NCBI GenBank assembly: GCA_036574205.1
Contig: JAINCQ010000038.1
Coordinates: 1 to 51,179, forward strand
Reading direction: 5' to 3'
Origin: Elusimicrobiota bacterium
GTDB taxonomy: Bacteria > Elusimicrobiota > Elusimicrobia > Elusimicrobiales > UBA9959
Length of the DNA: 51,179 bases
In this document: piece by piece, positions 5,181 through 49,051 of the stretch
Layout of the letters: each line of letters starts with the position of its first letter
Position numbering within the stretch: position 1 is the stretch's first letter
Position numbers and translations under genes: made by a program
The notes under the pieces: model-generated
Database searches by the model: none
What the model was told of the DNA's origin: nothing
What the model saw: only the letters and a program-made list of their open reading frames with translations

Positions 5181-5189
5181 AAACTTCCT

Positions 5190-13531: not shown

Positions 13532-13565
13532 AATAACTCCTTTACCTTTTTAAAACAAAATTAAC

Positions 13566-26061: not shown

Positions 26062-26070
26062 ATATCCTCC

Positions 26071-26688: not shown

Positions 26689-26739
26689 TATTACTAAAAA
26701 AGAAAATGAACTAAAATCATATCACATCTATAGATTAGC

Positions 26740-27732
26740 TCATATTGCAATATTCAATCTACTATTCACAAATTCAAGTTCAATTAAATTGTTTTCCTCA
26801 TCCATATTGATAACTGATATATCTGGAATATGCCTTATCATATCGCTTACAAACTGATGAATAAATTGTTTGCCATTTTTAGAAACCTTTACAATCATAT
26901 ATTTATCATTTATGTCAAATAAATAAAAATTCAAATCCTGCGATTTAAGAAAATTTACAAGGCTATTAACATAAGAAAGTTTTTTTATATTATATATTTT
27001 AAGATCAATATATTTTATCTCAAATGTGTTTTTATTATTAACCAGCTTATTCTGCAAATCGCTGATAAGTTTTTCATATGAATCTTTGAGCGAAATTCCT
27101 GAAACCCCAGAGGCTGTAAAACCTAAAACCTCCTGACCGTTTTTGGTATTAATAACAACATTCATAGTTGATAAAAAAACATCTGATGCTGATGAGTTTA
27201 TTTTAGAAGTATTAACAGAGGCTTTTACAAAATAATCATAACCCTTTATTTCATATTCGCCTGTTTTTTTATAAACTATATTTATCCCATCAGTCTTGTA
27301 TGGACGCGCCATTTTATATATCTCATCATCAAGATAAACAACTACTCTTGAAGATGGAGATTTTAAAAAGCCATAAGCTTTTATATCATTTATAAATTGT
27401 TTTATATCAAAATCGAATTTATACCTTGCTTTATAAACTCCATTTTTAATAATCCTGTCTTTTATCTTTATCCCCTCTAAGTAAAGCAAACATCTTTCTA
27501 CTAAATCATTATTTAATCTACCGCTGTAATCCTCATCAGCTAGAAGACTGATAAAAGAGGAAATAGAAGATTCACATATTTTTTTAACAGCTTCGTTTTG
27601 ATAATCAGCATCAGCTTTAATAGAGATATCATATGTAAATGATATTTTTTGGGAAAAAGGATCAGATGATTTTTTCGATAAATAACTACAACCCACTATA
27701 CCAAACATACTAAGAATAATCCATTTTTTCAT
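26740..27732 (-). CDS. Hypothetical lipoprotein
   Basis: MKKWIILSMFGIVGC lipobox; 330-aa ORF with SD gagagg. Confidence 0.7.
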   Translation of the reverse strand: MKKWIILSMFGIVGCSYLSKKSSDPFSQKISFTYDISIKADADYQNEAVKKICESSISSFISLLADEDYSGRLNNDLVERCLLYLEGIKIKDRIIKNGVYKARYKFDFDIKQFINDIKAYGFLKSPSSRVVVYLDDEIYKMARPYKTDGINIVYKKTGEYEIKGYDYFVKASVNTSKINSSASDVFLSTMNVVINTKNGQEVLGFTASGVSGISLKDSYEKLISDLQNKLVNNKNTFEIKYIDLKIYNIKKLSYVNSLVNFLKSQDLNFYLFDINDKYMIVKVSKNGKQFIHQFVSDMIRHIPDISVINMDEENNLIELEFVNSRLNIAI

Positions 27733-35929: not shown

Positions 35930-36062
35930 AGATAAAAAATATAGCAAAAAAAAGAATAATAATCAATACATTGTAAGAACTATACATATTTTAGTGATTC
36001 TGTTTTTCAAAATTGTATTGCATATGCCCCATAGTTTTTCTATAATAACATAGAATCATTTA

Positions 36063-36100
36063 ACTCCATTCTTAAAAACAATCGTCTTTTAAAGTGGAGT
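36063..36100. terminator. Imperfect stem-loop downstream of the motor cluster
   Basis: actcca..ttaaaa..ttttaa..tggagt inverted repeat about 65 bp after the last gene; no clean U-tract on the minus strand. Confidence 0.35.
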
Positions 36101-36165
36101 CAGCTTTTTATAAATTTTATTTTTTGGGATAGTAATGATAACTTAACATTAAGTTTAAAATTTAT

Positions 36166-36873
36166 TTAAAAACCGAAAGCTTTAAATATATCATCATCAG
36201 AAGGCGATGTCTTTTCCTCTTTCTTTGTTTCTGTTTTAGGTTTTTCCTCTTTTGTCTGTGGAGGAATCTGACCGGGAAGAGTTTTCATTTTTCCAAACCC
36301 TTCCCCAACCGGCGCAACTATAACTGCCCTTATTCCTTCGGCAAATGCTAAAAATCCAGTATCAAGATTATAATACAATCTAAAAGGGGATTCTTTAATT
36401 TGAGGCTCATATGTTTTTCCAAGATTGTTTTTCTGCTGCTCCCATCCTGGATTATAAACTATCTTTCCCCTGACATCAACCTCATTGTCTATAACAGGGA
36501 GAGAAAATCTTATCTTATATATACCCATTGTATCGCTTACACCTGGCATAAAATTAAGGCTAATCATTGATGAAACATTTTCCTCTATTATATTTTCATC
36601 TTCTTTTTTTAACACATCGCTCAAAGCTTTTACAGTAACACCCTCTATGGGATTGCCATAATAATCTGTAATAACTCCCGCAATTGAACCTTCAAGAAAT
36701 ATTCCAAGCTTTGTGGTGGTAAAAAAAAGAAAATTTTTTTTGCCTATGACTTTCTTTGTTAAAGCCAAATCAGTAACACGCCCGTCTGTAAAATCAACAA
36801 CTTTTATATTGGAACTCGAAAAACATCCACTTAACAAAAAGGAGATTATTATTATAAATTTACTTTTTTTCAT
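36166..36873 (-). CDS. Lipoprotein with carboxypeptidase-regulatory-like (Cna-B-type) beta domain; overlaps motB
   Basis: Lipobox LSGC; GSIAGVITDYYGNPIEGVTV...SDTMGIYKI; charged low-complexity tail. Confidence 0.75.
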   Translation of the reverse strand: MKKSKFIIIISFLLSGCFSSSNIKVVDFTDGRVTDLALTKKVIGKKNFLFFTTTKLGIFLEGSIAGVITDYYGNPIEGVTVKALSDVLKKEDENIIEENVSSMISLNFMPGVSDTMGIYKIRFSLPVIDNEVDVRGKIVYNPGWEQQKNNLGKTYEPQIKESPFRLYYNLDTGFLAFAEGIRAVIVAPVGEGFGKMKTLPGQIPPQTKEEKPKTETKKEEKTSPSDDDIFKAFGF

Positions 36874-37498
36874 CCTTTATTTTTCCTCCAAAAGTCTTCA
36901 CAAAGAAAACCACTCTTCTATTTTTCTGCCTTCCTTCAGGAGTCGAATTCTCAGCTACAGGTCTATACTCTCCATAACCTATGGCGGAAATTCTTTTTGG
37001 ATTAAAATCATTATCAATAAGATATCTTACGACAGAGGTTGCCCTTGCTGTTGAAAGCTCCCAGTTTGAAGCAAACTGTTTTGTAAATATAGGAACATTA
37101 TCAGTATGTCCCTCTACAATTATCTCATAATCTTGAGAAAGTTTTTTCAATGCTGGAATTATTTTATCAATTGTCTGTTTTATCTCATCGGTAAGATCAG
37201 CCTTTCCACTTTCAAAAAAAGGCAATTGCCCCTGTTCTTGAAGAGTTATTCTCAAACCCTCTTTATTTATTTCAACCTGCCCGGACATCTCGCCTTTATT
37301 CATCATTTCTTTAATCTGCTGAGCAGCATTCTGAACATTTTTATTCAAAGCAGCGCTTAAAGCGTATAAAATAATAAAAAAACACACCATTTCAGTCATA
37401 AGGTCTGCGTAATTTACCATCCATGGAGGAGCGGGATGTCCTATCTGTGAAACCCTCGGGTCATCTTCGGGTATCATGTTTTTAGCTCTTACAGACAT
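36860..37498 (-). CDS. motB: Stator protein MotB (compact, 212 aa)
   Basis: WMVNYADLMT (essential Asp) TM; OmpA-like peptidoglycan-binding domain GHTDNVP, NWELSTARA, GYGEYRP, NRRV. Confidence 0.93.
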   Translation of the reverse strand: MSVRAKNMIPEDDPRVSQIGHPAPPWMVNYADLMTEMVCFFIILYALSAALNKNVQNAAQQIKEMMNKGEMSGQVEINKEGLRITLQEQGQLPFFESGKADLTDEIKQTIDKIIPALKKLSQDYEIIVEGHTDNVPIFTKQFASNWELSTARATSVVRYLIDNDFNPKRISAIGYGEYRPVAENSTPEGRQKNRRVVFFVKTFGGKIKDEKK

Positions 37499-38278
37499 TT
37501 ATTCCTCTTTCTTTATAGCCTGTCTTTTTGATGGCTCTAAATAAGCCTTAAGATTTGCTTCTACTATAGAAGGGGTTGCTCCACTTTGAAGTAAAAGAAC
37601 ACCCCTGATAATTATCTCCTTTATAAATATTTCCTCTTCAGATCTTAATTTAAGTTTTCCAGCCATAGGAAGGAAAAGCCAGTATCCAGAGCCAAGTCCG
37701 TAAAAAGCGGATGCAAGAGCCAGCGCCATTCTTCTTGGCACCTGCGCCACATCGTCTATAGTTGAAAGCATAAGTATCATTCCAAGAACTGTTCCTATTA
37801 TTCCAAATGCCGGAGCATATGTTCCAAGAGCGTTAAATATTTCCCTGCCAATTTTATGCCTTTCTCTTATAAAATCAAGTTCAGTTTCAAGCATATTCTT
37901 TATAAAATCATGATCCGCGCCATCTATAACAAGCTGTATGGCTCTTTTCATAAAATCATCATTTATATTTTTTACATCTGCCTCAAGAGCCAGGAAACCC
38001 TCTTTTTTAGCTTTTTGTGATAATGCTACAAAAGTAGAAACAAGTTTTGACGTATCTTCACCCTTTGAAGTCATTACTTTTTTCAAAACCTTCCATAAAC
38101 CTATAACCCTTGACAATGGGAAATTTACTAAAAGCGCGCAAAAAGTTCCACCCATAACAACTAAAAGAGCCTCTATATTCATAAAAGGCAGAAAACCCTT
38201 CAATCCTTCCTGAAGGTAAACTGCGCCAACAACGAAACCCATAAAAACCAGTATCCCGGTAAATGTAGCTATATCCAT
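37499..38278 (-). CDS. motA: Stator protein MotA/PomA
   Basis: MDIAT..G, LVVMGGT, KKEGFLALE, APAFGIIGTVLGMI, FYG...LFLP, G.TP. Confidence 0.94.
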   Translation of the reverse strand: MDIATFTGILVFMGFVVGAVYLQEGLKGFLPFMNIEALLVVMGGTFCALLVNFPLSRVIGLWKVLKKVMTSKGEDTSKLVSTFVALSQKAKKEGFLALEADVKNINDDFMKRAIQLVIDGADHDFIKNMLETELDFIRERHKIGREIFNALGTYAPAFGIIGTVLGMILMLSTIDDVAQVPRRMALALASAFYGLGSGYWLFLPMAGKLKLRSEEEIFIKEIIIRGVLLLQSGATPSIVEANLKAYLEPSKRQAIKKEE

Positions 38279-38286
38279 ATCTCACC

Positions 38287-38511
38287 TCATTTTTTTTCAA
38301 AACCCTCTATAGGATTTATAACCTTTCTTTCAGAATAAACTCTTTTCTTATACTCCACAACTTTTTCTATAACTAAATTTTTATCTTCTTTTACTATAAA
38401 TCTATTACCTGTAACAAGGTTTATAACAGTATCCGGAGACGATTCAACGCTTTCTATAAGCTCAGCGTTTATCACTATTTCCAGATTATTTAATTTATGC
38501 AATATTATCAT
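38287..38511 (-). CDS. flbD: FlbD/SwrD family protein (start probably MIILHK at 38511)
   Basis: MI.L.KLN....INAELIE.VE..PDTVI.L.TG..FIVKE....VIEKV.EYK; flbD-motA-motB synteny. Confidence 0.92.
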   Translation of the reverse strand: MIILHKLNNLEIVINAELIESVESSPDTVINLVTGNRFIVKEDKNLVIEKVVEYKKRVYSERKVINPIEGFEKK

Positions 38512-38536
38512 CTCTGTATAATTATACAAAAAAAGA

Positions 38537-41308
38537 TTATTTTTGTCCTTTCTTCAACTCCTCTATCTGTTTTTTTAACATTTCAATAGTTTTTTCTTTT
38601 TCTTCCCATCCTGTTACATAGGTATGAAGCTGCGCAAGAAGCTCATTATAATCTGAGTTTAAAGCATTCATGTTATTATTCAATTCCTCTATTTTCTTAT
38701 CAGCCATCTCGGATTTTGCTTTTGTCATAAAATAAGCGTTTTTAAGTTTTTCATATTCAGCTTTATACTTTTCCACAAATTGCATATATTTTGCCAGTTC
38801 CGCATTCAATCTAACTATCTCATCTTTACTGGACTGTTTATTATCATCCGACAAAGCTTGAGTTAAAAGTTTTTCATTTTCTTCCTTTAATTTATCTCTT
38901 TCCTCTATTATATTTTTAAGATCCTGAGAAAGCGACTCTATCTGCGAAGAATATTTTTCTTCAATATCAGAAATTTTCTTTTCAAAATCATCAGTTGATT
39001 TGTTTTCTAAACCTTTATTTTCAAGCCCCTTTATTTTTTCTTCCAAATCAGATATTTCTTTATTCTTATTTTCAATCTCCTTCTCATATTCAGAAACTTT
39101 TGAAGCAAGTTTTTCAGCCTCAACTCTTTTCTCGTCAAAAGATTTAATAATAGTCTCCAATTCTTCTATTTTCTTGCGGCTTTGCTCAATTTCGATTTTT
39201 AACGAAGAAATCTCATTCTCTTGATCATTAATTTTACGATCTTTCATCTCCACTTCTTTTATCTTTTCCTCATATTCTCTTCTCAGCTCACTAATTCTCA
39301 TTTCAATCTCAGACTCCATCTGCTTCTTATTTTCCTCTTGTATTTCGGCAACATTCTTCTCATAATCTTCCTTAAGTTTTTTAATTTTATCCTCATAATC
39401 TGATATAAGCTTTTGATTATCTTCTGAGTTTAAAATCATTTCCTTATATTTATTCAACTCCTCTTCATAAGCTTTTCTTATAGCAGAGTTTTCCAGATTC
39501 AACTTTTTTATCTCATCCATAAGCGCAGATATTTTTTTTGAAAGTGAGTCTTTTTCAGCCAGAAGTTTTCTATTTTCAGATTCAAGAAAAATTTTCGTTG
39601 CCACTATTTTTTTAGCCGAATCATTTGCCTTTTCAAATCTTTCATTGTAAGTTTTTTTTACAGAATTTATTATCTCATCTTTTTGTTTCAACTCTCTTAT
39701 AAGATCTTCACTTTTCTCTTTAAGAATTTCTATTTGAGATAAATTTTTTTCGTTTTCATATTTAGTTTTCTCAAGATCTTTTTCCATTACCTTATTTTTA
39801 TTTAATATATTTGCATACTCCTTTTCTATCTCTTTACTAAGTGATTCCATTTTTTTAAACCTTTCGGAAAGCATCTCTATTTCATCCTTATACTTACTTA
39901 ATTCTATTTCTTTCTTTTTTAAAGACTCGTTAAGCCTTAAATTTTCCATCTCAAGCTCACCAATTTTTTCAGAATACCTTGTTTCTACTTTATTCACCTC
40001 AGATTTAAAATTAGTCTGCAATCTTTCATTCTCAGCTTTAATTTTATCAACTTCTTTTTCCATCTCTTTATTTAACAAATCCATCTTTCTTAAGCGTTCA
40101 GATAGTATATCCAGATCACCTTTATATTTATTTAATTCTACCTCTTTCCTTTTTAAAGATTCATTAAGTGTGGAGTTTTCCAACTCCAACACGTTAACTC
40201 TTTCAGAATATCTTATTTCTACCTTATTCACCTCAGATTTAAAATTAGTCTGTAACCTTTCATTTTCAGCTTTTAATTTGAAATTTTCCTGGGAAATCTC
40301 AGATTTTAAAAGGTTTAGCTCGGATATTAAAACATCTTTTTCTCTAATAGCTTTTTCATAGTCAAACTTAATCTTTTCTATCTCTTTTTGTCTTTCAAAG
40401 ATATTTTTTTCTGTCATCTCCCCAATCTGCCTTCTTAATTCAGAGATTTCCTTTAAAAGACCATCTTCTTTCATCTTAAATTTATCCGATTCAAGATTAA
40501 ACTGAGCTTTCAAATTAGATATTTCGTTTTTTAAAACAATTATTTCTTTTTCTTTTTCCGGAATAAGTTTTATATATGTATCAAGAGAAATTCTTTCTTT
40601 CTCAAGATCATTTATTATTTTATTAAGCCGTTCAATCTCTTTAGCAGTTTGCTCTTTTTCTATAACAAACCTTTTATACTCATCTTCAATTCTACTTTTA
40701 GACTTTACCAGATCTTTTAACTTTCTTATTTCCTCATCCTTTTTTGAAATAATCTTTTGCCACTCTGCCTTTTCATCAAGGAATCTTCTTTCAAATTCCT
40801 GAAATCTCAAAACAAAATGTTCTTCAGCCTCTTTTGATGTTTTTTCTTTTTCCTGAAGCTGGGATTTTAAGGTTTGAACCCATGTTTCTCTCTCTTGAAT
40901 AAGTTTTATCTCAAGCTCTTTTATTCTGGATTTAAGAGCATTTTTTTCATCCTCTATTTCTTTTTCCCTCTGCGCTCTTTTGATTTTATCCTCTACCTCC
41001 CTTATAGAATTTTCAAGTTTTGATGCAAGAACCTCTTCCTGCTGACTTTTTATAGTAAGAGCTAAAACCTTTTCCCTTTCTTCTGCAAGACTTTTCTCAA
41101 GTTCAATAATCTTTTTTTCAAGTTTCTCCTTCTCCTCATTAATTTTTGAATAATCCTGTGTTTCTCCAATAGATGGAGTTGGTTTTGCTAAAGGCAGGGG
41201 GTTTTTAACTGGAAAAGAAGGAGACGGAAGAGGAGGTTTATTAATATTAGACTTTCCAGCCACAAATGGAGGAATAGGAGGCAAATTCTTTTTATTTAAC
41301 TCTGCCAT
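38537..41308 (-). CDS. 923-aa cytoplasmic coiled-coil protein with Pro-rich N-terminus
   Basis: Continuous K/E/L heptads; no TM, signal peptide or ATPase motif seen. Confidence 0.85.
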   Translation of the reverse strand: MAELNKKNLPPIPPFVAGKSNINKPPLPSPSFPVKNPLPLAKPTPSIGETQDYSKINEEKEKLEKKIIELEKSLAEEREKVLALTIKSQQEEVLASKLENSIREVEDKIKRAQREKEIEDEKNALKSRIKELEIKLIQERETWVQTLKSQLQEKEKTSKEAEEHFVLRFQEFERRFLDEKAEWQKIISKKDEEIRKLKDLVKSKSRIEDEYKRFVIEKEQTAKEIERLNKIINDLEKERISLDTYIKLIPEKEKEIIVLKNEISNLKAQFNLESDKFKMKEDGLLKEISELRRQIGEMTEKNIFERQKEIEKIKFDYEKAIREKDVLISELNLLKSEISQENFKLKAENERLQTNFKSEVNKVEIRYSERVNVLELENSTLNESLKRKEVELNKYKGDLDILSERLRKMDLLNKEMEKEVDKIKAENERLQTNFKSEVNKVETRYSEKIGELEMENLRLNESLKKKEIELSKYKDEIEMLSERFKKMESLSKEIEKEYANILNKNKVMEKDLEKTKYENEKNLSQIEILKEKSEDLIRELKQKDEIINSVKKTYNERFEKANDSAKKIVATKIFLESENRKLLAEKDSLSKKISALMDEIKKLNLENSAIRKAYEEELNKYKEMILNSEDNQKLISDYEDKIKKLKEDYEKNVAEIQEENKKQMESEIEMRISELRREYEEKIKEVEMKDRKINDQENEISSLKIEIEQSRKKIEELETIIKSFDEKRVEAEKLASKVSEYEKEIENKNKEISDLEEKIKGLENKGLENKSTDDFEKKISDIEEKYSSQIESLSQDLKNIIEERDKLKEENEKLLTQALSDDNKQSSKDEIVRLNAELAKYMQFVEKYKAEYEKLKNAYFMTKAKSEMADKKIEELNNNMNALNSDYNELLAQLHTYVTGWEEKEKTIEMLKKQIEELKKGQK
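39818..40279 (-). repeat. Intragenic 234-bp (78-aa) tandem duplication
   Basis: K.KAENERLQTNFKSEVNKVE.RYSE... occurs twice; cacctcagatttaaaattagtctg at 39995 and 40229. Confidence 0.85.
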
Positions 41309-41355
41309 ATAACTATATTCTAAAATTTAAGCATTTCAATAATATTAAAAAAATA

Positions 41356-43263
41356 TTACATTCCAAGTTGTCTTTTTAAATCATCAAGCCAATTTTTAAA
41401 CTCCATATCATTGGACAATTTTACATAATTATCATAAGCTGAAACAGCTTCTGCATAGTTACCAATAGAGTAATAACTTGAACCAAGATATTGCCAGGCC
41501 ACAGCGTTTTCAGGCTCGGCTTCAATAACATACCTTAGATAAGAAATAGCAGTTTCAAAGTCCTGAGAATTATATGCATCAACAGCTTTAGACATATAGT
41601 CAGATAATGAATCTTCTTGTTGAGACTGAGTTTGAGATGCTTTCTCTATTCTCTTATCACGTGCAGCAGAAGAGATATCAGATTCTATTATATATATTCC
41701 TCCTTCACTTTTTCTATAACTTGCTATTTTGCCCTCAGCCTCAAGAGTTTTAACAGTATCAACTATTTTCATCTGCGCTTCATCAATCTGTTGCTGTGTT
41801 AATTCCCCCATATACTCTATAATCTCTTTTATGGTGTTCTGAGCTCCCTGAGACATATTTCTGAAAAATTTATCTGATATTTGGGGAGAAGCGCCTTTAA
41901 GAGCTTTTGCAAGGTCTTCGTTTGAAACACTTCTTATAATAGTCTGAATATCCTTGTCACTAAAAGAAACAATGTCTTCAAAGATAAGCATTATGCTTCT
42001 TATTTTTTCATATATATCAGGTTTCTGGTTTTTTAAGTATTCAAGAACGTTTTTTCTTGTTTGTGGATCAGCCTCTTCAAGTATCTTCATTAACTGCTCC
42101 ACCCCTCCCATTACAAATTCCACACTTTCCTTCACTTCTTTATCAATAGCTTCTATCTGTTCTCTTGTAGCTTGTTTTACCTTCAAGGATTCAATAGCAA
42201 CTTTAGATTGTAGTTCAACTGGAAGCATGGCAAAAGCCTGTTTTGATATTTCTGGCTTAAGATAACTTAAAATTACCGCTATTATCCATGGGTCCTCTTT
42301 TTTAAGTAAAAAAAGATAAATAAGTTTTTTAAGATTTTCTTCATTGATGTAAGTAAAAGGCTCCAACTTCTTCATTTCTTCCTCCTCCTCTACCTCTTCT
42401 TCCTCTTTCTGGATAAAATTCATATCTATAGCCTGATGCCCTTCCTGCTTCTCTTCCCCTTCCCCTTTCCCTTCACCCTTACCGCCTTCTTCTCTTTTAT
42501 CCTCTATATTGACCTCAGCCCCAGGCTTTTCCATAATAGCTTTCAGATACCGTCTTAAAAAAGACCATAACGGTCCAAAAAGGTAAAATAAAAACAAGAG
42601 AAGCAAAATAGCATATAGAAGCGGAAGATAAACTAGAGGCTTTTTAATATCATCCCATATATTGGAAGTATTAAATTTTGTCGGTTTGAATATGACTATC
42701 GGAGGGTCTTTCCCTCCTATTTTATATGGAAGCAATAAATCATCTATTCTCTCCCTTGCTATCATAAGCAAACCCTGAGGTAATTTCTCGTCGTGTAAAA
42801 CAGTAACCTGAAACTTTGTTATTGTCGGCTCTACAGAAAATTTTACTTCTTCCACCCCAAGTGTTTGTTGTGTTTGCCTTCCATGTGCAGCCTCTGGCCT
42901 TTTATCATCTCCTAAAATATATTTAGGCTTTGGGATTCCTGGAAGAATAAAATCAGTATCTGCATAAGACTGAGAAGCGCCTTTTTCCTTATATTGCTGT
43001 AAAACCCCAACTCCCTCTTTTGACTGATCTCTTTTTTTTGTTATTATTTCAAAAAGCACATCCGCAAAAGCAAAAGCTCTGTCTTTCCCAAGCACAGGAT
43101 CCAGTATGTTATTTTTTATTTTTTCCTCTATTTCCTTTCTAAACTCATTTTGTTTTTCTATCAGGACAATATTTATATCATTTGAATATGTATTATTCTG
43201 AGAGAAAATTACTGAGATGTTAATAACCAAAAGAAAAAAGGATATTATAATACTGAACCTCAT
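41356..43263 (-). CDS. Membrane-anchored FliG-domain protein: signal peptide, FliF-C-like periplasmic domain, TM, FliG middle/C domains, TPR
   Basis: aa 1-21 signal; aa ~40-197 IEEKI..ILDPVLG...LPGIP...ITKFQVTV; TM aa ~210-235; aa ~302-513 EDPWIIAVILSYL, GG linker, MLIFED, LAKALKG, NMS, IDEAQ.KIV...LEAEGKI; aa ~555-620 TPR. Confidence 0.85.
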   Translation of the reverse strand: MRFSIIISFFLLVINISVIFSQNNTYSNDINIVLIEKQNEFRKEIEEKIKNNILDPVLGKDRAFAFADVLFEIITKKRDQSKEGVGVLQQYKEKGASQSYADTDFILPGIPKPKYILGDDKRPEAAHGRQTQQTLGVEEVKFSVEPTITKFQVTVLHDEKLPQGLLMIARERIDDLLLPYKIGGKDPPIVIFKPTKFNTSNIWDDIKKPLVYLPLLYAILLLLFLFYLFGPLWSFLRRYLKAIMEKPGAEVNIEDKREEGGKGEGKGEGEEKQEGHQAIDMNFIQKEEEEVEEEEEMKKLEPFTYINEENLKKLIYLFLLKKEDPWIIAVILSYLKPEISKQAFAMLPVELQSKVAIESLKVKQATREQIEAIDKEVKESVEFVMGGVEQLMKILEEADPQTRKNVLEYLKNQKPDIYEKIRSIMLIFEDIVSFSDKDIQTIIRSVSNEDLAKALKGASPQISDKFFRNMSQGAQNTIKEIIEYMGELTQQQIDEAQMKIVDTVKTLEAEGKIASYRKSEGGIYIIESDISSAARDKRIEKASQTQSQQEDSLSDYMSKAVDAYNSQDFETAISYLRYVIEAEPENAVAWQYLGSSYYSIGNYAEAVSAYDNYVKLSNDMEFKNWLDDLKRQLGM

Positions 43264-43330
43264 AAATATAATTTTACCTTATTAATAATTACAAAAATAT
43301 AACATAATTATTATATAAACCAAGCTAAAT

Positions 43331-44914
43331 CTATTTTATCTGTTCAAGAAATTGTTTTACTGTAATATTGTTAGGATTGATCTCAAGAACTTTTTCCCAC
43401 ATTGCTTTTGCTTTAGCTTTTTGATCCATAAGGAAGAAAGCGCTTCCCATAATCTCAAGCGCCGTCTCATTATTCGGTTCAAGATCAAGTATATCCTGCG
43501 CTCGTCTTAAAGCAACATCGTATTTCCCTTCATATATAGCCTGCCTTGCGTCATAAATTTTTTGATCTATTAATGTAAAAATCTCAGGTCCCTCGGGTCT
43601 TCTTGTAAGTTCACTCATGCCAGCTTCTTTCTCTACCATATTAAGCAGAGAAAGCAATTTGTCGTCTTTTGGATTTTTATTATAAGCATGTCTTAAAACA
43701 TTAACAGCACTTCTTAAATCTTTTCCATCAACATACGCTACTATACCCCTTCTAATAAGTGTTTGAAGTTCATCCATACCAGTTGCATTAGGTACATAAG
43801 TAATAGCTGACTGAAGTTTATCAAGCATTTGTCTTATCTCAACATTACCTGGATCTGCATCAAGAGCGCTTTTGAATTTTTCAACTGCTTTTGAAAAGTA
43901 TCCTGATTTGAAATACTGTAAAGCCTGTCTTACTATATTTCTTATTTCAGAATCATGTTTAGCCTTTGAGGAATCACCAAATCTAATCCCCACAGAAAAC
44001 TTTGTAGTGTTTCCAAGAGAATGTATTCCCTGAGCTACATCAAGGTTAACCCCTTTGTATTTAATACCTATTCCAAAACTTGCTTCCTGTATATCTGGAT
44101 TTGCCATTATGCCAAATCTAAAAGCCGCCCAATAAAGTGGATAATACTCTCCACCAAACCTCAGGTTCTGTCCCCCACCTTGAGTTTTTGTAACATCAAG
44201 ATCGAATATCAAACTTCCCTTGAAAAGACTGAAAGATTGCCCTAACTTAAAAACAAGCGGAAAATTATCGTCGGTATCGCCAGATTTCATTGAGAAAATA
44301 TTCTGGACTCCAAAAGCAAATCTATACACCTTTGACATATTATAATTTATAGCAAGATCTATTGTATTAAAAGAATCCTTTGATGTGTCTACGCTTCTTG
44401 AAACATTTTTTACAGAAACCCCAAATGCCAATTTTGAAGAAACGTTTCTCCCCCATGCCAGTCCTATCGCTCTTTCTGTTACTTCAAATGTTCCAAGACT
44501 TTCAAGGCTTACTATTTCGTTAGTATTTGGATCAACTTTTATCGCAACCTTTTCAAATCCTCCAGAATTCATCTGATCCATAAATATACCAAATGTTCCT
44601 TTTGAAGCAGTTGGTTGAACATAGCCTATAAAATTAAGGGTTGTCTGCTCAAACATCTGCGCTTGCATAAAAGAAAACTCTTTTCTTTCAACAAGCGACA
44701 AGGCTGCCGGATTCCAGTAACTTGCTGTTGCGTCATCGCTTATTGCAAAAAAAGCACCTCCCATCCCCAGGGCTCTTGCTCCAACGCCATAATTTAAAAA
44801 TGCACCTGCCTGACCACCACTTTGAGCAAACGTATCAACTGTAAATAAAAAAACCATTATAAATGCTTTTAGCAGATATAATGGTTTAATTATATATATA
44901 AATACTCTATTCAT
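43331..44914 (-). CDS. PorV/PorQ (FadL-like) outer-membrane beta-barrel protein with C-terminal TPR domains (start probably MNRVF at 44914)
   Basis: AFL.YGVGARALGMGGAF.A..DDA.A.YWNPA.L; amphipathic beta strands ending FSVGIRF; then TPRs (AVEKFKSALDADPGN, AKAMWEKVLEINPNN). Confidence 0.85.
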   Translation of the reverse strand: MNRVFIYIIKPLYLLKAFIMVFLFTVDTFAQSGGQAGAFLNYGVGARALGMGGAFFAISDDATASYWNPAALSLVERKEFSFMQAQMFEQTTLNFIGYVQPTASKGTFGIFMDQMNSGGFEKVAIKVDPNTNEIVSLESLGTFEVTERAIGLAWGRNVSSKLAFGVSVKNVSRSVDTSKDSFNTIDLAINYNMSKVYRFAFGVQNIFSMKSGDTDDNFPLVFKLGQSFSLFKGSLIFDLDVTKTQGGGQNLRFGGEYYPLYWAAFRFGIMANPDIQEASFGIGIKYKGVNLDVAQGIHSLGNTTKFSVGIRFGDSSKAKHDSEIRNIVRQALQYFKSGYFSKAVEKFKSALDADPGNVEIRQMLDKLQSAITYVPNATGMDELQTLIRRGIVAYVDGKDLRSAVNVLRHAYNKNPKDDKLLSLLNMVEKEAGMSELTRRPEGPEIFTLIDQKIYDARQAIYEGKYDVALRRAQDILDLEPNNETALEIMGSAFFLMDQKAKAKAMWEKVLEINPNNITVKQFLEQIK

Positions 44915-45000
44915 AGCTTCGGCAGCCTGACCTTCCGGTATATACCGGAATCTTTGGCTTTGCGCCCCCAAATTTCTTTGGGTTTGCTATTATCGTACTA
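44914..45000 (-). ncRNA. GEMM-I (c-di-GMP-I family) riboswitch, A20 variant (c-AMP-GMP type)
   Basis: Minus strand UAGUACGAUAAUAGCAAACCCAAA-GAAA-UUUGGGGGCGCAAAGCC...GAUUCCGGUAUAUACCGGAAGGUC-AGGCUGCCGAAGCUA: P2 with GAAA tetraloop, GCAAAGCC junction, P3, 3' UGCCGA. Confidence 0.9.
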
Positions 45001-45051
45001 TATTTGCATTACAAATATATTACGCCTGCCTTACAATGTTGTTACATTTAT

Positions 45052-45079
45052 ATTATAGCAGAAAATCTGGTTTTGTCAA
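45052..45079 (-). promoter_or_regulatory. Consensus sigma70 promoter driving the riboswitch leader
   Basis: TTGACA (45079-45074), 16 bp, TATAAT (45057-45052) with extended -10 TG. Confidence 0.75.
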
Positions 45080-45098
45080 TACCCTAATTATAGACATG

Positions 45099-48000
45099 TC
45101 AAGTATGCCTGGTTTTAAATTTATTTTTAATCCAGTTTTGTAAATTGTCCATTAGAACATAAGTTACAGGTGTCATTAAAAGCGTTATTAAAAGTGATAA
45201 AACCTGCCCTCCGATTATAACCCCGGCAAGAGACCTTCTCATACCTGCGCCTGGACCTGTTCCAAGGGCCGTGGGAATCATAGCAAAAACAAGTGTGATA
45301 GTTGTCATTAGTATGGGTCTTAATCTAGTTCTATTTGCCTCTATAATTGCTTTATGCCTATCATATCCTTTTGCACGTAGCGTATTAGTATAATCAACCT
45401 GAAGTATAGAATTCTTTTTAACTATACCAAAAAGCATAAACATTCCCATAAGAGCGAATATTGTAAGATTCGAACCTGTGATGTAAAGTGAAATCAAAGC
45501 AAAAGGGAGGGTAAGGGGCAAAATTATTATTATTGAAACAGGATAAGTAAAACTCTCAAATTGAGCTGCAAGAACTATATAAACAAAAAGAAATGCAAAG
45601 ATAAAAGCCATCAAAAAACTTTTGAGCATTCTTCCAAACTCTTTTGCCTTTCCAACAGGCTGAGCCTGATATTGAGGATTATTATTTATTTTTCTAAAAA
45701 CCTCATCACAGGTATTTAAAAGCTGGCTTAAAGAAGCTTTTCCCTCAACATTCGCATATATAGATATTTTTCGCTGCCTGTTAAACCTGTCTATCTGAGT
45801 TGGTCCATATCCCGCTTCTATATCACTAACAGCATCTAACCTTACAACCTTGTTTACTGAAGAAGGAACAACCAAAGATTTTATAACCTGAGGCGAGTTT
45901 CTCCATTTTTCTTCAGCTCTCACTTTAACTTCATATAATTCGTCCCCCTCTTTATATTTTGTGACGCTTTCCTGCCCTGAAACAAAATTCCTGATTGTAT
46001 TTGCGATATCCTCAATTTTAACTCCTAACTTATGAGCCCTGTCTCTATCAATTATTATTTTATACTCCGGCTTTGCATTCGAAAAACTTGTATCAAGATC
46101 AACTACGCCATCGATTTTCTTAAGTTCGGATATTAAACTGTTAGCATAGCCTTGAAGAATGTTTAAATCTGAACCCATTACAACATACTCCATTTCATAA
46201 TTCTTCATTCCAGATATGCTCCCCTGTCCACCTACTATAACTGATGTTCTCAATCCTTCATATTTAGAAAGCATTTTTCTAACTTTAGCCATAATTTTTT
46301 CAAGGCTTTCTTTTCTTTCATTAACCCCGACAATTTCAAAAAATATATATCCTTCGTTTTTATTTGAAATACCGCTTTGAGAAATTCCGATATTTACAAG
46401 GGTTTTTGTTATATATGGAACATTATTTTTTATCTCAGATTCTATCTGAAAAATTAATTTCTTCATAATTTCAAGGTTTGTTCCTTCTTTCGCGGCAATA
46501 TTAACCTGAAACATAGAGGTATCATCAACTGGAAGGAAATTTTTTCCAATAAACTTAATCATAAAAAAAGTCATAATCATTAAAATCAATGAAGAAACTA
46601 CCATAAATTTTATATGGGAAAGTGCATAACTAAGTATCTTTATATAATATGACGCAAGAGTTTCGTTTAATCTTTCAGCAAATAATCTAAATTTTGTTTC
46701 TTTAAGTTTTCTTAACAATAACCCTGAATAACTTGGCGTTATGGTTAAAGCTACTAATGTAGATATAGCAATGGAATAAGCAAGGGTCAGTCCAAAACTT
46801 TTCATAAATCTTCCAACCATACCAGACATATAAGCAAGCGGAACAAATATTGCAAGAAGAGATATAGATATTGCAAGAACTGCAAATCCTATTTCCCTTG
46901 AACCGCTTATTGCGGCATCAAGAGATGATGTGTTTTCTTGTTCAAGATGTCTGTGTATGTTTTCAATCATAACAATAGCATCATCAATTACAAGCCCAAC
47001 TCCAACAACAAGTGCAAGAAGAGTTATGTTATTTAATGTAAAACCACTTATCTCCATAAGTGAAAATGATCCTATAACAGAAACAGGAATCGCAATAGCA
47101 GATATAATTGTGCTTCTTAAATCTCCGATAAATAAAAGTATTACAAGCGAAGCAAGTAAAGCACCTAAAACTAAATGCTCTTTTACAGCGTTTAAAGAAC
47201 CATTAATAAAAACACTTTGATCTCCTACTATCTCAACCTTCATATCAGGTGGTAAAATTTTTTTTATTTCATTAAGTTTTTCTTTTATATTTTCTATAAC
47301 TTTGACTGTGTTTGTTCCAGACTGTTTTTTAATAACAAGCGTAACCGCTGGTTTCCCATTTAAATATGAAATATTTTTAATATCCTCACCAGTATCTTTA
47401 ATACTTCCTATGTCCTTTAATTTTATTAAAGCTCCATTATAAGATGTAATTAAAATATCATTGAAATCACTAACCTTTTTAACCCTTCCCATCGTTCTTA
47501 AAACAAAATCCATATCCATCTGCTCTACATTCCCGCCCGGAACTTCCACATTCTGCTGTCTTATAGAATCAATAACCTGCTTAACAGTAATTTGATACGC
47601 CTGCATTTTTAAAGGATCTAAAATGACATGTATCTCCCTGTTTCTTCCACCAACTATATCCACAGAACCGACACCGTTTACTGTTTCAAGCATCTCTTTA
47701 ATTCTTTTTTTCACAGTTTCAGTAAGATTTACTATATCTCTATCTCCGGAAACAGCTATATTTATTATTGGCATTGCTCCAAAATCTACTTTGCTTACTA
47801 CTGGCGGATCCGTCCCTTGAGGAAGTTGTGAAAGTATTGCGTTAACCTTATCCCTTACCTCCTGAGCGGCGATATCCGGATCCCTATCCAGATCGAATTT
47901 TATCATAACAAGGCTCATTCCTTCATAGCTTGTTGAAGCTAAATCTTCTATTCCGTTAATTGTGTTTACAGCCTCCTCTATAACCTTTGTAACTGATGAT

Positions 48001-48179
48001 TCTATTTCTTCAGGGCTGGCACCTCTTAAAATAGTCTTTACTGTAACAAATGGAAATTCAACATTTGGAAATAAATCCACGCCAATTCTTAGATAAGAAA
48101 AAATACCTAAGGTTATTATTGCAACTCCAAGCATTGTTGTAAAGACTGGTCTTTTAATAAAAAACTCTGAAAACCTCAT
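45099..48179 (-). CDS. RND efflux permease (AcrB/AcrD/AcrF family)
   Basis: FIKRPV, GASPEEIE, VIDDAIVMIENI, GIVKKNSIL, RLRPILMT; 1026 aa. Confidence 0.96.
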   Translation of the reverse strand: MRFSEFFIKRPVFTTMLGVAIITLGIFSYLRIGVDLFPNVEFPFVTVKTILRGASPEEIESSVTKVIEEAVNTINGIEDLASTSYEGMSLVMIKFDLDRDPDIAAQEVRDKVNAILSQLPQGTDPPVVSKVDFGAMPIINIAVSGDRDIVNLTETVKKRIKEMLETVNGVGSVDIVGGRNREIHVILDPLKMQAYQITVKQVIDSIRQQNVEVPGGNVEQMDMDFVLRTMGRVKKVSDFNDILITSYNGALIKLKDIGSIKDTGEDIKNISYLNGKPAVTLVIKKQSGTNTVKVIENIKEKLNEIKKILPPDMKVEIVGDQSVFINGSLNAVKEHLVLGALLASLVILLFIGDLRSTIISAIAIPVSVIGSFSLMEISGFTLNNITLLALVVGVGLVIDDAIVMIENIHRHLEQENTSSLDAAISGSREIGFAVLAISISLLAIFVPLAYMSGMVGRFMKSFGLTLAYSIAISTLVALTITPSYSGLLLRKLKETKFRLFAERLNETLASYYIKILSYALSHIKFMVVSSLILMIMTFFMIKFIGKNFLPVDDTSMFQVNIAAKEGTNLEIMKKLIFQIESEIKNNVPYITKTLVNIGISQSGISNKNEGYIFFEIVGVNERKESLEKIMAKVRKMLSKYEGLRTSVIVGGQGSISGMKNYEMEYVVMGSDLNILQGYANSLISELKKIDGVVDLDTSFSNAKPEYKIIIDRDRAHKLGVKIEDIANTIRNFVSGQESVTKYKEGDELYEVKVRAEEKWRNSPQVIKSLVVPSSVNKVVRLDAVSDIEAGYGPTQIDRFNRQRKISIYANVEGKASLSQLLNTCDEVFRKINNNPQYQAQPVGKAKEFGRMLKSFLMAFIFAFLFVYIVLAAQFESFTYPVSIIIILPLTLPFALISLYITGSNLTIFALMGMFMLFGIVKKNSILQVDYTNTLRAKGYDRHKAIIEANRTRLRPILMTTITLVFAMIPTALGTGPGAGMRRSLAGVIIGGQVLSLLITLLMTPVTYVLMDNLQNWIKNKFKTRHT

Positions 48180-49051
48180 AAATTCTCCTGATTAAGAACT
48201 TTTATTGGCGAGTTATTTGAAATTCCATAAAGCCCTATTGTTATTATCTCATCCCCTTCTTTTAAATTTTTAACTTCAATCCAGTCTGTATTCTTTATGC
48301 CATGTTTTATCTCTTTTTCAATAGCGACATTATTCAATCTATCTGCAAGATAAACATATTTTTTCCCCTCTTTCTCAACTATTGCGGAAACAGGAATAGC
48401 TAAAGCCCTTTGAACTTCCTGCAGAATAACATGAGCCTCAGCTATCATTCCAGACTTCAATAAATTTTCTCTGTTTTCTATAAAAGCCTCCACAAGAAAG
48501 GTTCTTGAAAGTTTATCAACAACAGGGCTTACTTTATCTACCTTTGTATAAAAAATTTTATCAGCATAAGCATCAACCTTAATATATACCTTGCTTCCAA
48601 CAGATATTCTGGATAAATATTTTTCCGGGACTTCTATCTGAACCCTGATAACATCCTGATTTACCACAAGGGCTATCGGTGTCATTGGATTAACATCAGC
48701 TCCTTCATCCTGATAAACCCTCCCCACATATCCGCTTATAGTTGAAGGAACCGGAGCGGGTTCATATACAACCCCAACATCGTCTTTTTTAACTAAAGCA
48801 ATAGCATCATCTTTTTTGACAAAATCCCCTTCCCTGACCAGATTCTTTACGAGTTTTCCATTTATTCGCGGGTATATCACAGCTTCATCTTTTCCTTTTA
48901 TATTGCCCGATATTACCAACTCCTCCTTCAGATCTTTCCTTATAACCTTTTGAGTTTGTACATAAAAAACATTTTCATTTTTACTTCCATCTTTCTTATG
49001 GCATGAAACAACCGCAAAAAGCATAAGTAAAATCAAAAAATTTTTCTTCAT
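48176..49051 (-). CDS. RND periplasmic adaptor (membrane fusion lipoprotein)
   Basis: Lipobox VVSC; lipoyl-like halves (V.EGD.VKK, STISG.V) with essentially no alpha-hairpin; LKSGM. Confidence 0.9.
   Translation of the reverse strand: MKKNFLILLMLFAVVSCHKKDGSKNENVFYVQTQKVIRKDLKEELVISGNIKGKDEAVIYPRINGKLVKNLVREGDFVKKDDAIALVKKDDVGVVYEPAPVPSTISGYVGRVYQDEGADVNPMTPIALVVNQDVIRVQIEVPEKYLSRISVGSKVYIKVDAYADKIFYTKVDKVSPVVDKLSRTFLVEAFIENRENLLKSGMIAEAHVILQEVQRALAIPVSAIVEKEGKKYVYLADRLNNVAIEKEIKHGIKNTDWIEVKNLKEGDEIITIGLYGISNNSPIKVLNQENL

Follow-up and report, generated by a model that had tools for sequence, protein, structure and literature searches.

A FliF-FliG fusion encoded with MotAB behind a c-di-GMP riboswitch in Elusimicrobiota, a candidate rotor of a non-flagellar envelope motor

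Can the rotor of the bacterial flagellum be used where there is no flagellum to turn? To our knowledge, the flagellar motor is known only within the flagellum, where the type III export gate is also lodged in the MS-ring. A FliF ring consists of about 33-35 subunits; within it, RBM3 is the part that forms the S-ring and RBM1/RBM2 house the export gate, and canonical FliG is a soluble protein that docks on the FliF tail via FliG-N. The question is raised by a locus from an Elusimicrobiota bacterium (UBA9959; assembly GCA_036574205.1, contig JAINCQ010000038.1), studied here within a window of 51,179 nucleotides (positions 1-51,179), that is, the whole stretch of DNA that was analysed. In this locus the ring-forming end of FliF and the torque-receiving part of FliG are fused in one polypeptide, encoded in a c-di-GMP operon together with MotA and MotB, and the protein is therefore probably a non-flagellar rotor, belonging to an envelope motor that has not been described. 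In its specific form, namely a single-chain, cut-down flagellar rotor that would be driven by MotAB, gated by c-di-GMP and coupled to the outer membrane, this reading is given a probability of roughly 0.55.

The fusion is encoded at 41356..43263, exactly the span named in the original prediction, on the minus strand, as are all features given below. Its translation of 635 aa contains the strings that had been quoted for it, EIEEKIKNNILDPVLGKDRAFAFADVLFEI, LPGIPKPK, ITKFQVTVLHDE and PPIVIFKPTKF, and the ORF translation, Pfam and an AlphaFold model describe a FliF(RBM3/collar)-TM-FliG(M,C)-TPR protein. The parts follow one another as had been claimed: a hydrophobic N-helix, a periplasmic domain, one TM helix, an acidic linker, FliG-M, FliG-C and TPR. 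Kyte-Doolittle hydropathy (19-residue window) peaks twice, marking aa 1-24 and aa 206-237 as hydrophobic, and this arrangement of two hydrophobic helices either side of a periplasmic region is a hallmark of FliF. The first segment (43192..43263; hydropathy peak 2.5) is either cleaved off as a signal peptide or stays in place as a first TM helix (TM1). The second (42553..42648; hydropathy 2.56; AF2 helix 209-239) is a transmembrane helix, in which LFGPL is almost invariant among relatives; it is directly followed by RRYLK, and the C-terminal part of the fusion is therefore cytoplasmic. Next comes an E/G/K-rich acidic linker (aa 241-300; 42364..42543), defined by composition and without a family match, in which glutamate makes up 20 of the 65 residues of aa 241-305 at a net charge of -12. 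The protein ends in a cytoplasmic TPR tail (aa 540-635; 41359..41646), recognized by Pfam TPR_16 and TPR_2 (aa 540-620) and by matches to designed-TPR structures; its last 80 residues are modelled by AF2 at pLDDT 95-98, and its WQYLG motif is kept phylum-wide.

Is the periplasmic part, only ~180 aa long, a piece of FliF? According to the AlphaFold model and a domain profile, aa 28-205 (42649..43182) form an RBM3-like domain of alpha-beta-beta-alpha-beta order, whose strands 1 and 2 are separated by an inserted long beta-hairpin and loop in the manner of the FliF collar; this insertion (aa 84-138) is modelled with low confidence (pLDDT <50). The best PDB matches of the model in Foldseek were FliF RBM3/collar chains, as had been anticipated for aa 25-200; such chains again came top with a second aligner independent of Foldseek, and in structure comparison FliF RBM3 scored 2-3 Z units above every other RBM protein. 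Chain 8z4d_1, a Vibrio FliFG fusion, was among the PDB matches of the window protein. SpoIIIAG, from the ring of the sporulation channel, which has in common the RBM fold with its strands 1 and 2 set apart by a large insertion, stood at rank 19 in the Foldseek check. In sequence searches, the domain profile finds bona fide FliF proteins at E ~1e-11 to 1e-13 in a library of 1.84 billion proteins; against PDB sequences its matches are weak, with SpoIIIAG best (E 0.0011) and FliF at 0.017 to 0.35. Within aa 1-300 of the fusion no Pfam family was matched at E <= 0.01, YscJ_FliF_C included, and the Pfam cut-off of that family (PF08345, RBM3) was reached by 9 of 16 shorter fusion relatives. By these comparisons the fusion counts as having a FliF RBM3 with the beta-collar insertion (PF08345), and homology of its periplasmic domain to the RBM3/beta-collar part of FliF is supported by profile and model together. 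PF01514 (YscJ_FliF, the SctJ-like RBM1/RBM2) was absent both from the fusion (Pfam, E <= 0.01) and from the whole genome.

The cytoplasmic part comprises a FliG middle domain (aa 319-381; 42121..42309; PF14841, E 2.4e-11, 44.1 bits, cut-off 25) and a FliG C-terminal domain with the torque helix (aa 409-513; 41725..42039; PF01706, E 1.6e-31, 109.2 bits, cut-off 23.3), with the M-x-x-FED and Gly-Gly motifs immediately upstream of the FliG_C match. T. maritima FliG-MC aligns with it over 216 residues (E 2.2e-37, 133 bits), MLIFED and MGG of the fusion lining up with MFVFED and VGG, and the model fits T. maritima FliG-C at an rmsd of 0.8-2.7 A and the stator-bound FliG-C (8ucs_H) at an rmsd of 1.3; FliG took ranks 1-15 and 17 when this model was searched by Foldseek. 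The NCBIfam fliG model TIGR00207 scores 134.9, under its equivalog cut-off of 226.7, and is aligned only over positions 112-329 of 338; the FliG N domain is therefore absent, in line with the original prediction. That prediction had also named an MgtE-N-like superhelix as the explanation that would undo its FliG-M/C reading. For aa 296-520 this candidate was ruled out: the best 11 PDB sequence matches were all FliG (E 1e-37 to 1.8e-15), no MgtE appeared among the 15 such matches listed, no MgtE chain occurred in the top 50 fold matches, and the MgtE_N Pfam score of 23.4 bits lies under the cut-off of 25.9. PDB sequence searches, Pfam and Foldseek all bear out FliG-M/C.

The FliG-M motif EHPQR, which we take to be the FliM contact, is degenerate, with KEDPW at the position of EHPQ in the fusion and REEPW, REEPQ or EETPE in relatives. 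In the torque helix, whose charges are presumably those numbered R281, D288 and D289 in E. coli, the positions aligned to T. maritima R, D, E and R are G, E, I and T in the window protein. The first acid is E in all 19 fusions compared and the second is E in 10 of them, while the Arg has been lost family-wide (G, S or N in 19/19). The FliF tail that binds FliG-N is absent, the TM helix leading instead through the acidic linker to FliG-M, and no FliG-N for a FliF tail to bind was found in this genome.

The surrounding operon is compact and all its genes share a strand. It opens with a single strong promoter-like site and a single riboswitch, followed by genes for a PorV-family barrel/TPR protein, the fusion, a 923-aa coiled coil, FlbD, MotA, MotB and a lipoprotein. 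The candidate promoter (45052..45079), TTGACA-16 nt-TATAAT with an upstream TG, matches the consensus at 12 of 12 positions and is the best-scoring site within 35800-45200. Downstream of it lies a c-di-GMP-I riboswitch aptamer (44918..44998; matched by Rfam RF01051 over the whole model, 1-87 of 87, at 62.2 bits with a gathering score of 35), the single RF01051 match across the genome, in which the GAAA tetraloop is kept. Only 3 nt (44915-44917) separate the aptamer from the ATG at 44914, which is probably the start of the first gene, rather than the TTG at 44971 inside the aptamer; high c-di-GMP probably turns the operon off. The first gene (43331..44914) encodes an outer-membrane beta-barrel of the PorV/PorQ family (aa about 36-312) that is followed by a TPR domain at the C-terminus (Pfam TPR). 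It scores 114.6 bits against NCBIfam PorV_fam NF033709 (cut-off 90) and misses the T9SS equivalogs PorV (27.6 bits, cut-off 250) and PorQ (70.2 bits, cut-off 220). Behind the fusion, the E/K-rich 923-aa coiled-coil protein with a Pro-rich N-terminus (38537..41308) has just weak SMC-type/coiled-coil matches and no hydrophobic segment, and is therefore probably cytoplasmic; coiled-coil ORFs occupy the equivalent position in the loci of relatives.

FlbD is a flagellar stator-associated factor, and its FlbD/SwrD-family counterpart here (38287..38529; PF06289, 78.6 bits, aa 7-64) probably starts at the internal ATG at residue 7, orthologues being mostly 72-77 aa long. MotA, the flagellar-type stator subunit A (37499..38278; PF01618, 93.6 bits), is followed by MotB (36860..37498), which has a plug (MotB_plug, 48 bits), a TM Asp in YADLMTE and an OmpA-like peptidoglycan-binding domain (83.4 bits). 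The TM Asp motif is shared by the MotB of the window and 10 of its 11 linked orthologues. In MotA, the position that we take to be E. coli R90 is K/R in the window and in all 11 aligned orthologues, and the one taken as E98 carries E in 5 of the 12 orthologous MotAs and Q in the other 7. Among NCBIfam models, MotA is matched best by MotP, MotA and PomA and MotB by MotD/MotB, in every case under the equivalog cut-off. By sequence the stator looks intact, and its type is the flagellar one, not that of Tol, Exb or Zor. A Zorya-type defence system was ruled out as a separate candidate, ZorA being unmatched and MotB reaching at most 73.6 bits with ZorB models versus 166 for flagellar MotD. The last gene, whose start overlaps the end of motB, encodes an Elusimicrobiota-specific lipoprotein of 235 aa with an LSGC lipobox (36166..36873). 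It matched no Pfam or NCBIfam family, its closest Atlas clusters are Elusimicrobiota hypothetical proteins, and a CarboxypepD_reg-like beta-sandwich is a possible fold.

How far does this arrangement extend, and is there a flagellum behind it? A fusion match was found in 223 of 401 Elusimicrobiota genomes, in ~135 of which, counted from the match table, it has E <= 1e-60 and starts in the N domain; among these, a single one shows in-frame stops. In a synteny sample of 18 loci from across the phylum, the PorV-family gene lies directly upstream of the fusion in 17, with a riboswitch of the RF01051 clan 5' of it in 15; flbD-motA-motB follows within 9 kb downstream in 11, motAB is not within 9 kb in the other 7, and the lipoprotein gene stands downstream of motB in 6. 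FHIPEP (FlhA) was found in just 9 of the 401 genomes. Searches of the 95.3%-complete assembly of the host itself turned up no YscJ_FliF (FliF RBM1/2), FHIPEP, FliMN_C (FliM/N), rod or flagellin family, which is consistent with the proposal made beforehand that this rotor is uncoupled from type III export. A second gene bearing FliG_C was not found there either.

The rotor reading can be put as a chain of steps that we infer from these parts. The fusion seems to keep the FliF membrane helix, and the covalent attachment of FliG-M/C, and then TPR, would replace the docking of FliG-N on the FliF tail. Copies of the protein would pack side by side via the RBM3-like domain into an inner-membrane ring, which would present a circle of FliG-C torque helices under the membrane. 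Peptidoglycan-anchored FlbD-MotA-MotB units, powered by ion flow, would push on FliG-C and so turn the ring, and the periplasmic collar would relay the motion to the outer-membrane PorV-family barrel/TPR protein; the TPR tail may be the cytoplasmic attachment point of the coiled-coil protein. The whole operon would be gated by c-di-GMP through the riboswitch abutting the first start codon. Such a motor most likely has its output in surface-associated motility, or else in handling large surface proteins, rather than in a flagellum.

Some features sit awkwardly with rotation. A ring tied to an outer-membrane barrel has no obvious way to spin, and a long cytoplasmic coiled coil riding on a rotor is mechanically odd. 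The missing YscJ_FliF_C match of the window protein itself, the weak matches of its domain profile to PDB sequences, the low pLDDT of the collar, the degenerate EHPQ, the torque charges that are only partly kept and the 7 loci without nearby motAB also count against the rotor reading.

TolQR-TolA and ExbBD-TonB are transducers of tension or conformational signals to the outer membrane, and a comparable role can be envisaged for the fusion: as a static oligomer or ring, it would anchor the work of MotAB and relay tension or a conformational signal to the outer-membrane PorV-family/TPR protein, with no continuous rotation. We regard this as unlikely, though it has points in its favour. The outer-membrane partner is closely linked (17/18 loci) and bears a periplasmic TPR domain, and one classical charge pair looks relaxed on both sides, with the torque-helix Arg lost and the MotA E98 position divided between E and Q. 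There is also precedent, as many 5:2 motors are described in the available text of PMC12204202 as powering non-rotary outputs at the outer membrane. Against it, the retained parts, the RBM3 ring domain plus FliG-C, are exactly those that rotate in the flagellar motor; MotA, with MotP, MotA and PomA as its best models, belongs to the flagellar type and not to the TolQ/ExbB type; and FlbD has been retained as well.

A purely regulatory role appears decidedly improbable. The fusion would then be a membrane-anchored FliG-like protein that binds or sequesters stators, or reports the state of the envelope or the proton-motive force to c-di-GMP signalling, with no mechanical output. Such a sensor would suit the riboswitch control of the operon and the existence of relatives (P0244) in which a histidine kinase is fused ahead of the same FliF-C/FliG-M/FliG-C core. 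However, the genome holds neither another FliG_C gene nor a flagellum for the stators to serve, and the outer-membrane barrel, coiled coil and lipoprotein, conserved alongside the fusion, would be superfluous.

Still less credible, and very improbable in our judgement, is that the operon is the decaying relic of a lost flagellum and functionless today, even though all other flagellar families searched are missing from the genome and the EHPQ motif and some torque-helix charges have drifted. Full-length fusion frames are open phylum-wide at 30-77% identity, with stops in frame in one full-length fusion-type match listed (G249, two TAA); a paralogue-type match (G137:C1) has one TAA. Gene order and riboswitch are conserved, the 19 TPR-bearing fusions cluster and branch as the genomes do (SH-aLRT 91, in a quick unrooted tree from uneven cut-outs), and 4 of the 9 FHIPEP-positive genomes have the fusion alongside a canonical FliG of 320-346 aa. 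That the likeness is superficial, aa 25-200 having an unrelated fold and the helical region being an MgtE-N-type superhelix, can practically be dismissed in view of the Z margin of FliF RBM3, the profile matches to true FliF (E ~1e-12), the FliG sequence match (E 1e-37) and the lack of MgtE in the top 50 folds.

As a rotor, the fusion is best understood beside the systems that it resembles. With the flagellar rotor and stator it shares an RBM3-type domain followed by a membrane helix, FliG M and C with the MxxFED hinge, Gly-Gly linker and torque helix, and flagellar-type MotA, MotB and FlbD. What are two proteins there are one polypeptide here, and the fusion lacks FliF RBM1/RBM2, the FliF tail, FliG-N and the torque-helix Arg; FliM/FliN, the export apparatus, rod, hook and filament were not found in the host genome, and the system adds the TPR tail, the PorV-family barrel, the coiled-coil protein and the lipoprotein. 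Covalent joining of FliF and FliG is not new in itself. The view, expressed with the original prediction, that such fusions are mainly laboratory mutants holds insofar as laboratory ones exist: Salmonella FliF-FliG deletion-fusion mutants remain capable of assembly and rotation, according to work cited in PMC4768692, and an engineered Vibrio FliFG is reported to form MS-rings, with its S-ring solved (PMC11481574, 10.1101/2023.02.06.527414). However, a natural fusion has also been published, a shortened FliF-FliG-like protein of Chlamydiaceae, bacteria that are not thought to be flagellated (Bergeron 2016, PMC4768692). The laboratory fusions join full-length FliF (RBM1-3) to full-length FliG inside a complete flagellum, whereas the present one is natural and lacks RBM1/2, FliG-N and a flagellum. 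The chlamydial protein, as portrayed in the available text of PMC4768692, has ~330 aa with RBM2 and an unassigned RBM-like segment but without a SpoIIIAG-like (RBM3) domain, its cytosolic part resembles FliG-M only, and it is discussed in the context of the injectisome. Compared with that description, the Elusimicrobia fusion has RBM3 with a collar, FliG M and C, a TPR tail and MotAB in its operon.

A further parallel concerns the output. The GldLM machinery of type IX secretion and gliding uses an inner-membrane motor, powered by ions, whose action reaches through the periplasm to PorV-family proteins of the outer membrane and to large surface proteins that bear C-terminal sorting domains. 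Similarly, the first gene of the operon passes PorV_fam, and the genome has Por_Secre_tail proteins, of which two pass the cut-off and a giant ORF falls short of it; a search for SprA_N in the same genome gave no match, its control being equally silent. The motor differs, as it consists of MotAB and FliF/FliG instead of GldL/GldM, and the PorV/PorQ equivalogs are not reached; the link is one of analogy, not membership. Taken further, it may be supposed that in free-living Elusimicrobiota a one-protein MS/C-ring (FliF RBM3-collar plus FliG-MC) and MotAB make up an independent rotary engine, gated by c-di-GMP, that acts across the envelope on the PorV-family protein and so moves or handles giant sorting-domain surface proteins. 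This is a tentative proposal, which we hold to be somewhat doubtful. If true, the engine would be a new gliding or secretion machine reusing the flagellar torque core, and a rotor-stator module would work without the type III export apparatus, a state that models of flagellar origin must explain.

Orphan motAB/flbD/fliG of unclear role, in the absence of flagella, have been noted in Elusimicrobiota in a 2022 preprint (10.1101/2022.07.08.499144), whose text, as available, does not mention the fusion and whose supplement may list the genes. In the main texts of the literature on Elusimicrobiota FliG/MotAB and on FliF-FliG fusions, supplementary files aside, no description of the fusion or the operon was found. 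The interest of the locus lies in the fact that the ring-building and torque-receiving parts have been excised, fused and kept together with an apparently complete stator across a phylum in which FlhA is rare. If the ring forms and turns, it would be a minimal rotor of one protein plus MotAB, far easier to reconstitute and image than the flagellar basal body; it would be a natural experiment on the separability of rotor and export apparatus, bearing on the origin of the flagellum; and it would point to a hitherto unrecognized system for surface motility, adhesion or secretion in a phylum about which little is known.

A recent origin of the fusion from the phylum's own flagellar FliG is unsupported, its FliG-MC scoring 52-79 bits against four canonical FliGs from FHIPEP-positive Elusimicrobiota and 133 against that of T. 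maritima. Canonical FliGs form a separate long branch in the quick unrooted tree, which was built from cut-outs of uneven length. The contig locus search with the fusion protein alone found one locus, a paralogue at 29% identity.

Throughout the phylum Elusimicrobiota, and here in a genome without a flagellum, there is a natural fusion in which the S-ring-forming part of FliF (RBM3, a ring-building motif with a beta-collar insertion) is joined to the M and C domains of FliG and to a TPR. The original prediction had drawn this layout from sequence alone, and ORF calling, hydropathy, Pfam and NCBIfam confirm it: a single minus-strand ORF of 635 aa occupies exactly 41356..43263, and every sequence string quoted earlier is present in its translation. 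By a 19-residue hydropathy scan, the protein has two hydrophobic segments, aa 1-24, which is either cleaved off or, like the first helix of FliF, kept in the membrane, and aa 206-237. As RRYLK directly follows the latter, the rest of the chain is predicted to be cytoplasmic and aa 25-205 periplasmic. The linker (aa 241-305) holds 20 Glu in 65 residues with a net charge of -12, and is followed by Pfam matches to FliG_M (aa 319-381, 44.1 bits), FliG_C (aa 409-513, 109.2 bits) and TPR families (aa 540-620); the first 300 residues match no Pfam family at E <= 0.01. The predicted absence of a FliG N domain is borne out, since the fusion covers only positions 112-329 of the 338 in the NCBIfam fliG model.

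The periplasmic domain was modelled within aa 1-240 from 40 sequences, that is, this region of the window protein and 39 of 120 listed relatives (mean pLDDT 74). The model runs from a helix through a long strand (63-80), a low-confidence insertion (84-138), another long strand (139-158), a helix (163-176) and a strand (189-195) to the membrane helix, a predicted alpha-beta-beta-alpha-beta ring-building motif in which a long hairpin and loop separate strands 1 and 2. In a Foldseek search of the PDB, FliF MS-ring chains take ranks 1-18 (E 1.9e-4 to 5.7e-3) and SpoIIIAG, the other fold proposed for comparison, takes rank 19; the TM-scores are low because the insertion is poorly modelled. A domain profile was also built from the window protein and 18 loci across the phylum (20-83% identity to the window). 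Its five best matches among PDB sequences, all weak, are SpoIIIAG (E 0.0011) and four FliF entries (0.017 to 0.35), while 1121 matches at E <= 0.001 were obtained from 1.84 billion representative proteins. From these, 16 proteins of 499-570 aa with the match at roughly residues 232-455 (E 7.5e-14 to 2e-11) were chosen, and every one exceeds the Pfam cut-offs for both YscJ_FliF and YscJ_FliF_C. FliG_M and FliG_C are found in all of 16 shorter relatives (440-523 aa, without TPR), nine of which also exceed the cut-off for YscJ_FliF_C, and one 847-aa relative has a histidine kinase N-terminal to the same FliF-C/FliG-M/FliG-C core; ten small matches (166-237 aa) contain no Pfam family. The Foldseek ranking and the profile matches support the FliF-like ring domain proposed for aa 25-200, which by profile and predicted fold is best assigned as a FliF RBM3/collar domain.

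By alignment and modelling, the cytoplasmic part can be assigned to FliG M plus C. Residues 301-531 match T. maritima FliG-MC over ~216 residues at E 1e-37 to 2e-37, with the MxxFED hinge and the Gly-Gly linker in register, and the best 11 of 15 PDB sequence matches are all FliG. A Foldseek search with a model of aa 296-635 (60-sequence alignment, pLDDT 86) ranks FliG chains 1-15 and 17, with designed TPR proteins after them; FliG-C alone superposes on FliG chains with an rmsd of 0.8-2.7 Å, and the rmsd to the stator-bound FliG-C of 8ucs_H is 1.3 Å. An MgtE-N-like superhelix, which the original prediction had itself named as the competing explanation of this region, is rejected, as the MgtE_N score of 23.4 bits is under the Pfam cut-off and none of the 15 PDB sequence matches is an MgtE chain. 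The domain interpretation as a whole is hence supported by Pfam, profile and Foldseek evidence.

The EHPQ motif and the torque-helix charges appear from alignment to have drifted: KEDPW stands at the EHPQ position, and the R, D, E and R of T. maritima are replaced by G, E, I and T. All 19 fusions compared have Glu at the first acid and 10 have it at the second, and none keeps the Arg. For MotA, 12 orthologues were aligned, that of the window and 11 linked ones. The position that we take to be R90, by E. coli numbering and not from a computed alignment, is K or R in every one, and that presumed in the same way to be E98 is E in five and Q in seven. Judged by these counts, one rotor-stator charge pair looks retained and the second relaxed in both FliG-C and MotA.

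The fusion gene is the second of seven genes on the same strand, which are preceded by a promoter-like site at 45079-45052 (-), the best of the region with 12/12 consensus positions, and then by a c-di-GMP-I riboswitch at 44998-44918 (-; 62.2 bits against 35). By this match, the operon is predicted to be under c-di-GMP control. The 3' end of the aptamer lies 3 nt (44915-44917) from an ATG at 44914, and the listed TTG start of the first ORF, inside the aptamer, is probably wrong. As the aptamer lies right against the start codon, the bound ligand probably masks the ribosome landing site; high c-di-GMP would then switch the operon off, as for a motility-type function, although this direction is a guess. 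The leader (44918-44998) is the sole RF01051 match found in the whole 1.85-Mb genome.

The first gene encodes an outer-membrane barrel with a C-terminal TPR domain, which passes the broad NCBIfam PorV/PorQ model (114.6 against 90) and stays below the cut-offs of both equivalog models, T9SS PorV and PorQ. Behind the fusion lies an E/K-rich coiled-coil protein of 923 aa (38537-41308, -) without a hydrophobic segment; it is Pro-rich over residues 1-50 and has an exact 19-residue repeat (aa 346-364 and 424-442) in a longer duplicated segment. FlbD, MotA, MotB, with its plug, TM Asp and OmpA domain all present, and a lipoprotein whose start overlaps motB complete the operon. The listed TTG start of flbD (38287-38529, -) gives 80 aa, but residue 7, where the Pfam match begins, is an ATG and most orthologues have 72-77 aa, which makes 38511 the probable start. 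According to the available part of one source, SwrD/FlbD proteins form hexameric rings and are linked genetically to stator output, with MotA binding predicted and unconfirmed (PMC13740483).

In the window's own assembly (95.3% complete, 1.85 Mb), YscJ_FliF, FHIPEP, Flagellin_N, FliMN_C and Flg_bb_rod have no match, the one FliG_C match is the fusion gene, of the long type only, and there are two MotA_ExbB loci. The named relatives of the fusion among those listed in the protein database are all Elusimicrobia. A search of 401 Elusimicrobiota genomes gave matches in 223 of them at E <= 0.001; about 135 (table count) have one at E <= 1e-60 starting in the N domain, with identity down to 30% and stops in frame in only one. 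Matches are nearly all weak in the two families sampled most, whose genomes are small (28/118 in f2 and 14/89 in f16). FHIPEP (FlhA) occurs in nine of the 401 genomes (G319, G325, G064, G240, G121, G062, G104, G168 and G385). All five of these that were searched for FliG_C have a match, and in four (G319, G325, G064 and G240) a canonical FliG of 320-346 aa is found together with a full-length fusion; the fusion hence does not stand in for a FliG that was lost.

By a quick tree of the FliG region, unrooted and with its careful search unfinished, one branch (SH-aLRT 91) separates off the 19 TPR-bearing fusions, whose branching order tracks genome kinship, and a long branch (support 100) is formed by the four canonical FliGs alone. 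Against these four, the FliG part of the window protein scores 52-79 bits, compared with 133 bits against T. maritima FliG; by sequence, the canonical FliGs of FHIPEP-positive genomes are very unlike that of the fusion.

Among 18 loci picked across the phylum, a PorV-family gene is immediately upstream of the fusion in 17, flbD-motA-motB follows within 9 kb in 11, the lipoprotein comes next in six, and a same-strand riboswitch of the c-di-GMP-I clan is upstream in 15, in tandem in three of these. At three distant loci (L039, L040 and L041), the tandem riboswitch is ~600 nt upstream of the barrel gene. A second, shorter fusion type (520-596 aa, without TPR) occurs at L038:2344-5624 and L002:9515-13311, directly upstream of its own motA-motB and without a PorV-family gene; a riboswitch search at the L002 locus found none.

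According to one report, most free-living Elusimicrobiota carry homologues of motAB, flbD and fliG, with a role called unclear, and lack flagellar structural genes; the available part of that report mentions no FliF fusion, operon or riboswitch (10.1101/2022.07.08.499144). No description of this fusion protein was found in the literature, supplementary files aside. As far as the accessible text of the sources goes, laboratory FliF-FliG fusions assembled rings in Salmonella (via PMC4768692) and Vibrio (PMC11481574, 10.1101/2023.02.06.527414), and the published FliF-FliG of Chlamydiaceae is also a natural fusion but, unlike the window protein, has neither an RBM3-type domain nor FliG-C and no link to MotAB (PMC4768692).

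Most likely, the protein acts as a rotor: the RBM3-like domain would form an inner-membrane ring, as in FliF, that displays FliG-C to peptidoglycan-anchored MotAB units and would be turned by ion flow through them. Transmission to the outer membrane is favoured, via the PorV-family barrel and its periplasmic TPR domain, as this barrel is the constant partner. A serious rival is that the machine is a Tol/Ton-like force transducer instead, since the collar is poorly modelled, torque-helix charges are partly lost, seven of the 18 loci have no motAB nearby (within 9 kb), and it is hard to envisage how a ring could spin when attached to a barrel in the outer membrane or to a long coiled coil.

Elsewhere in the genome, T9SS-type C-terminal sorting domains (Por_Secre_tail over cut-off) are present in proteins of 1040 and 1212 aa. 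Two giant frames have their N-termini at contig ends, one of 5341 aa (C26:28686-44708, -) with a weak, sub-cut-off Por_Secre_tail/FlgD_ig-like C-terminal domain and one of 5080 aa (C19:1-15240, +). Neither these frames nor the sorting-domain proteins adjoin the operon in this assembly.

The operon is flanked by housekeeping genes, an RND efflux system upstream and phosphoglucomutase and enolase downstream. The efflux set is headed by a 613-aa ORF (49073-50914) and includes an HlyD-type gene (48176-49051) and AcrB (45099-48179); the 613-aa ORF, with a TetR_N DNA-binding domain (aa 11-56) and outer-membrane efflux protein (OEP) repeats near its C-terminus, represents an unusual fusion or else a pair of genes run together by an upstream start codon. 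The row formed at 25132-27732 by a CsgG-family protein, a GNA1162-like lipoprotein and a 330-aa protein without a family resembles a small module for outer-membrane secretion or lipoproteins. The hydrogenase maturation genes at 1122-7237 (HypF, an AIR-synthase-like protein, which is likely HypE, and HypD) are broken up by a LysR-type regulator, and at 10889-14741 an 880-aa fusion of a LuxC-type acyl-CoA reductase and an AMP-binding domain adjoins a LuxE-type acyl-protein synthetase.
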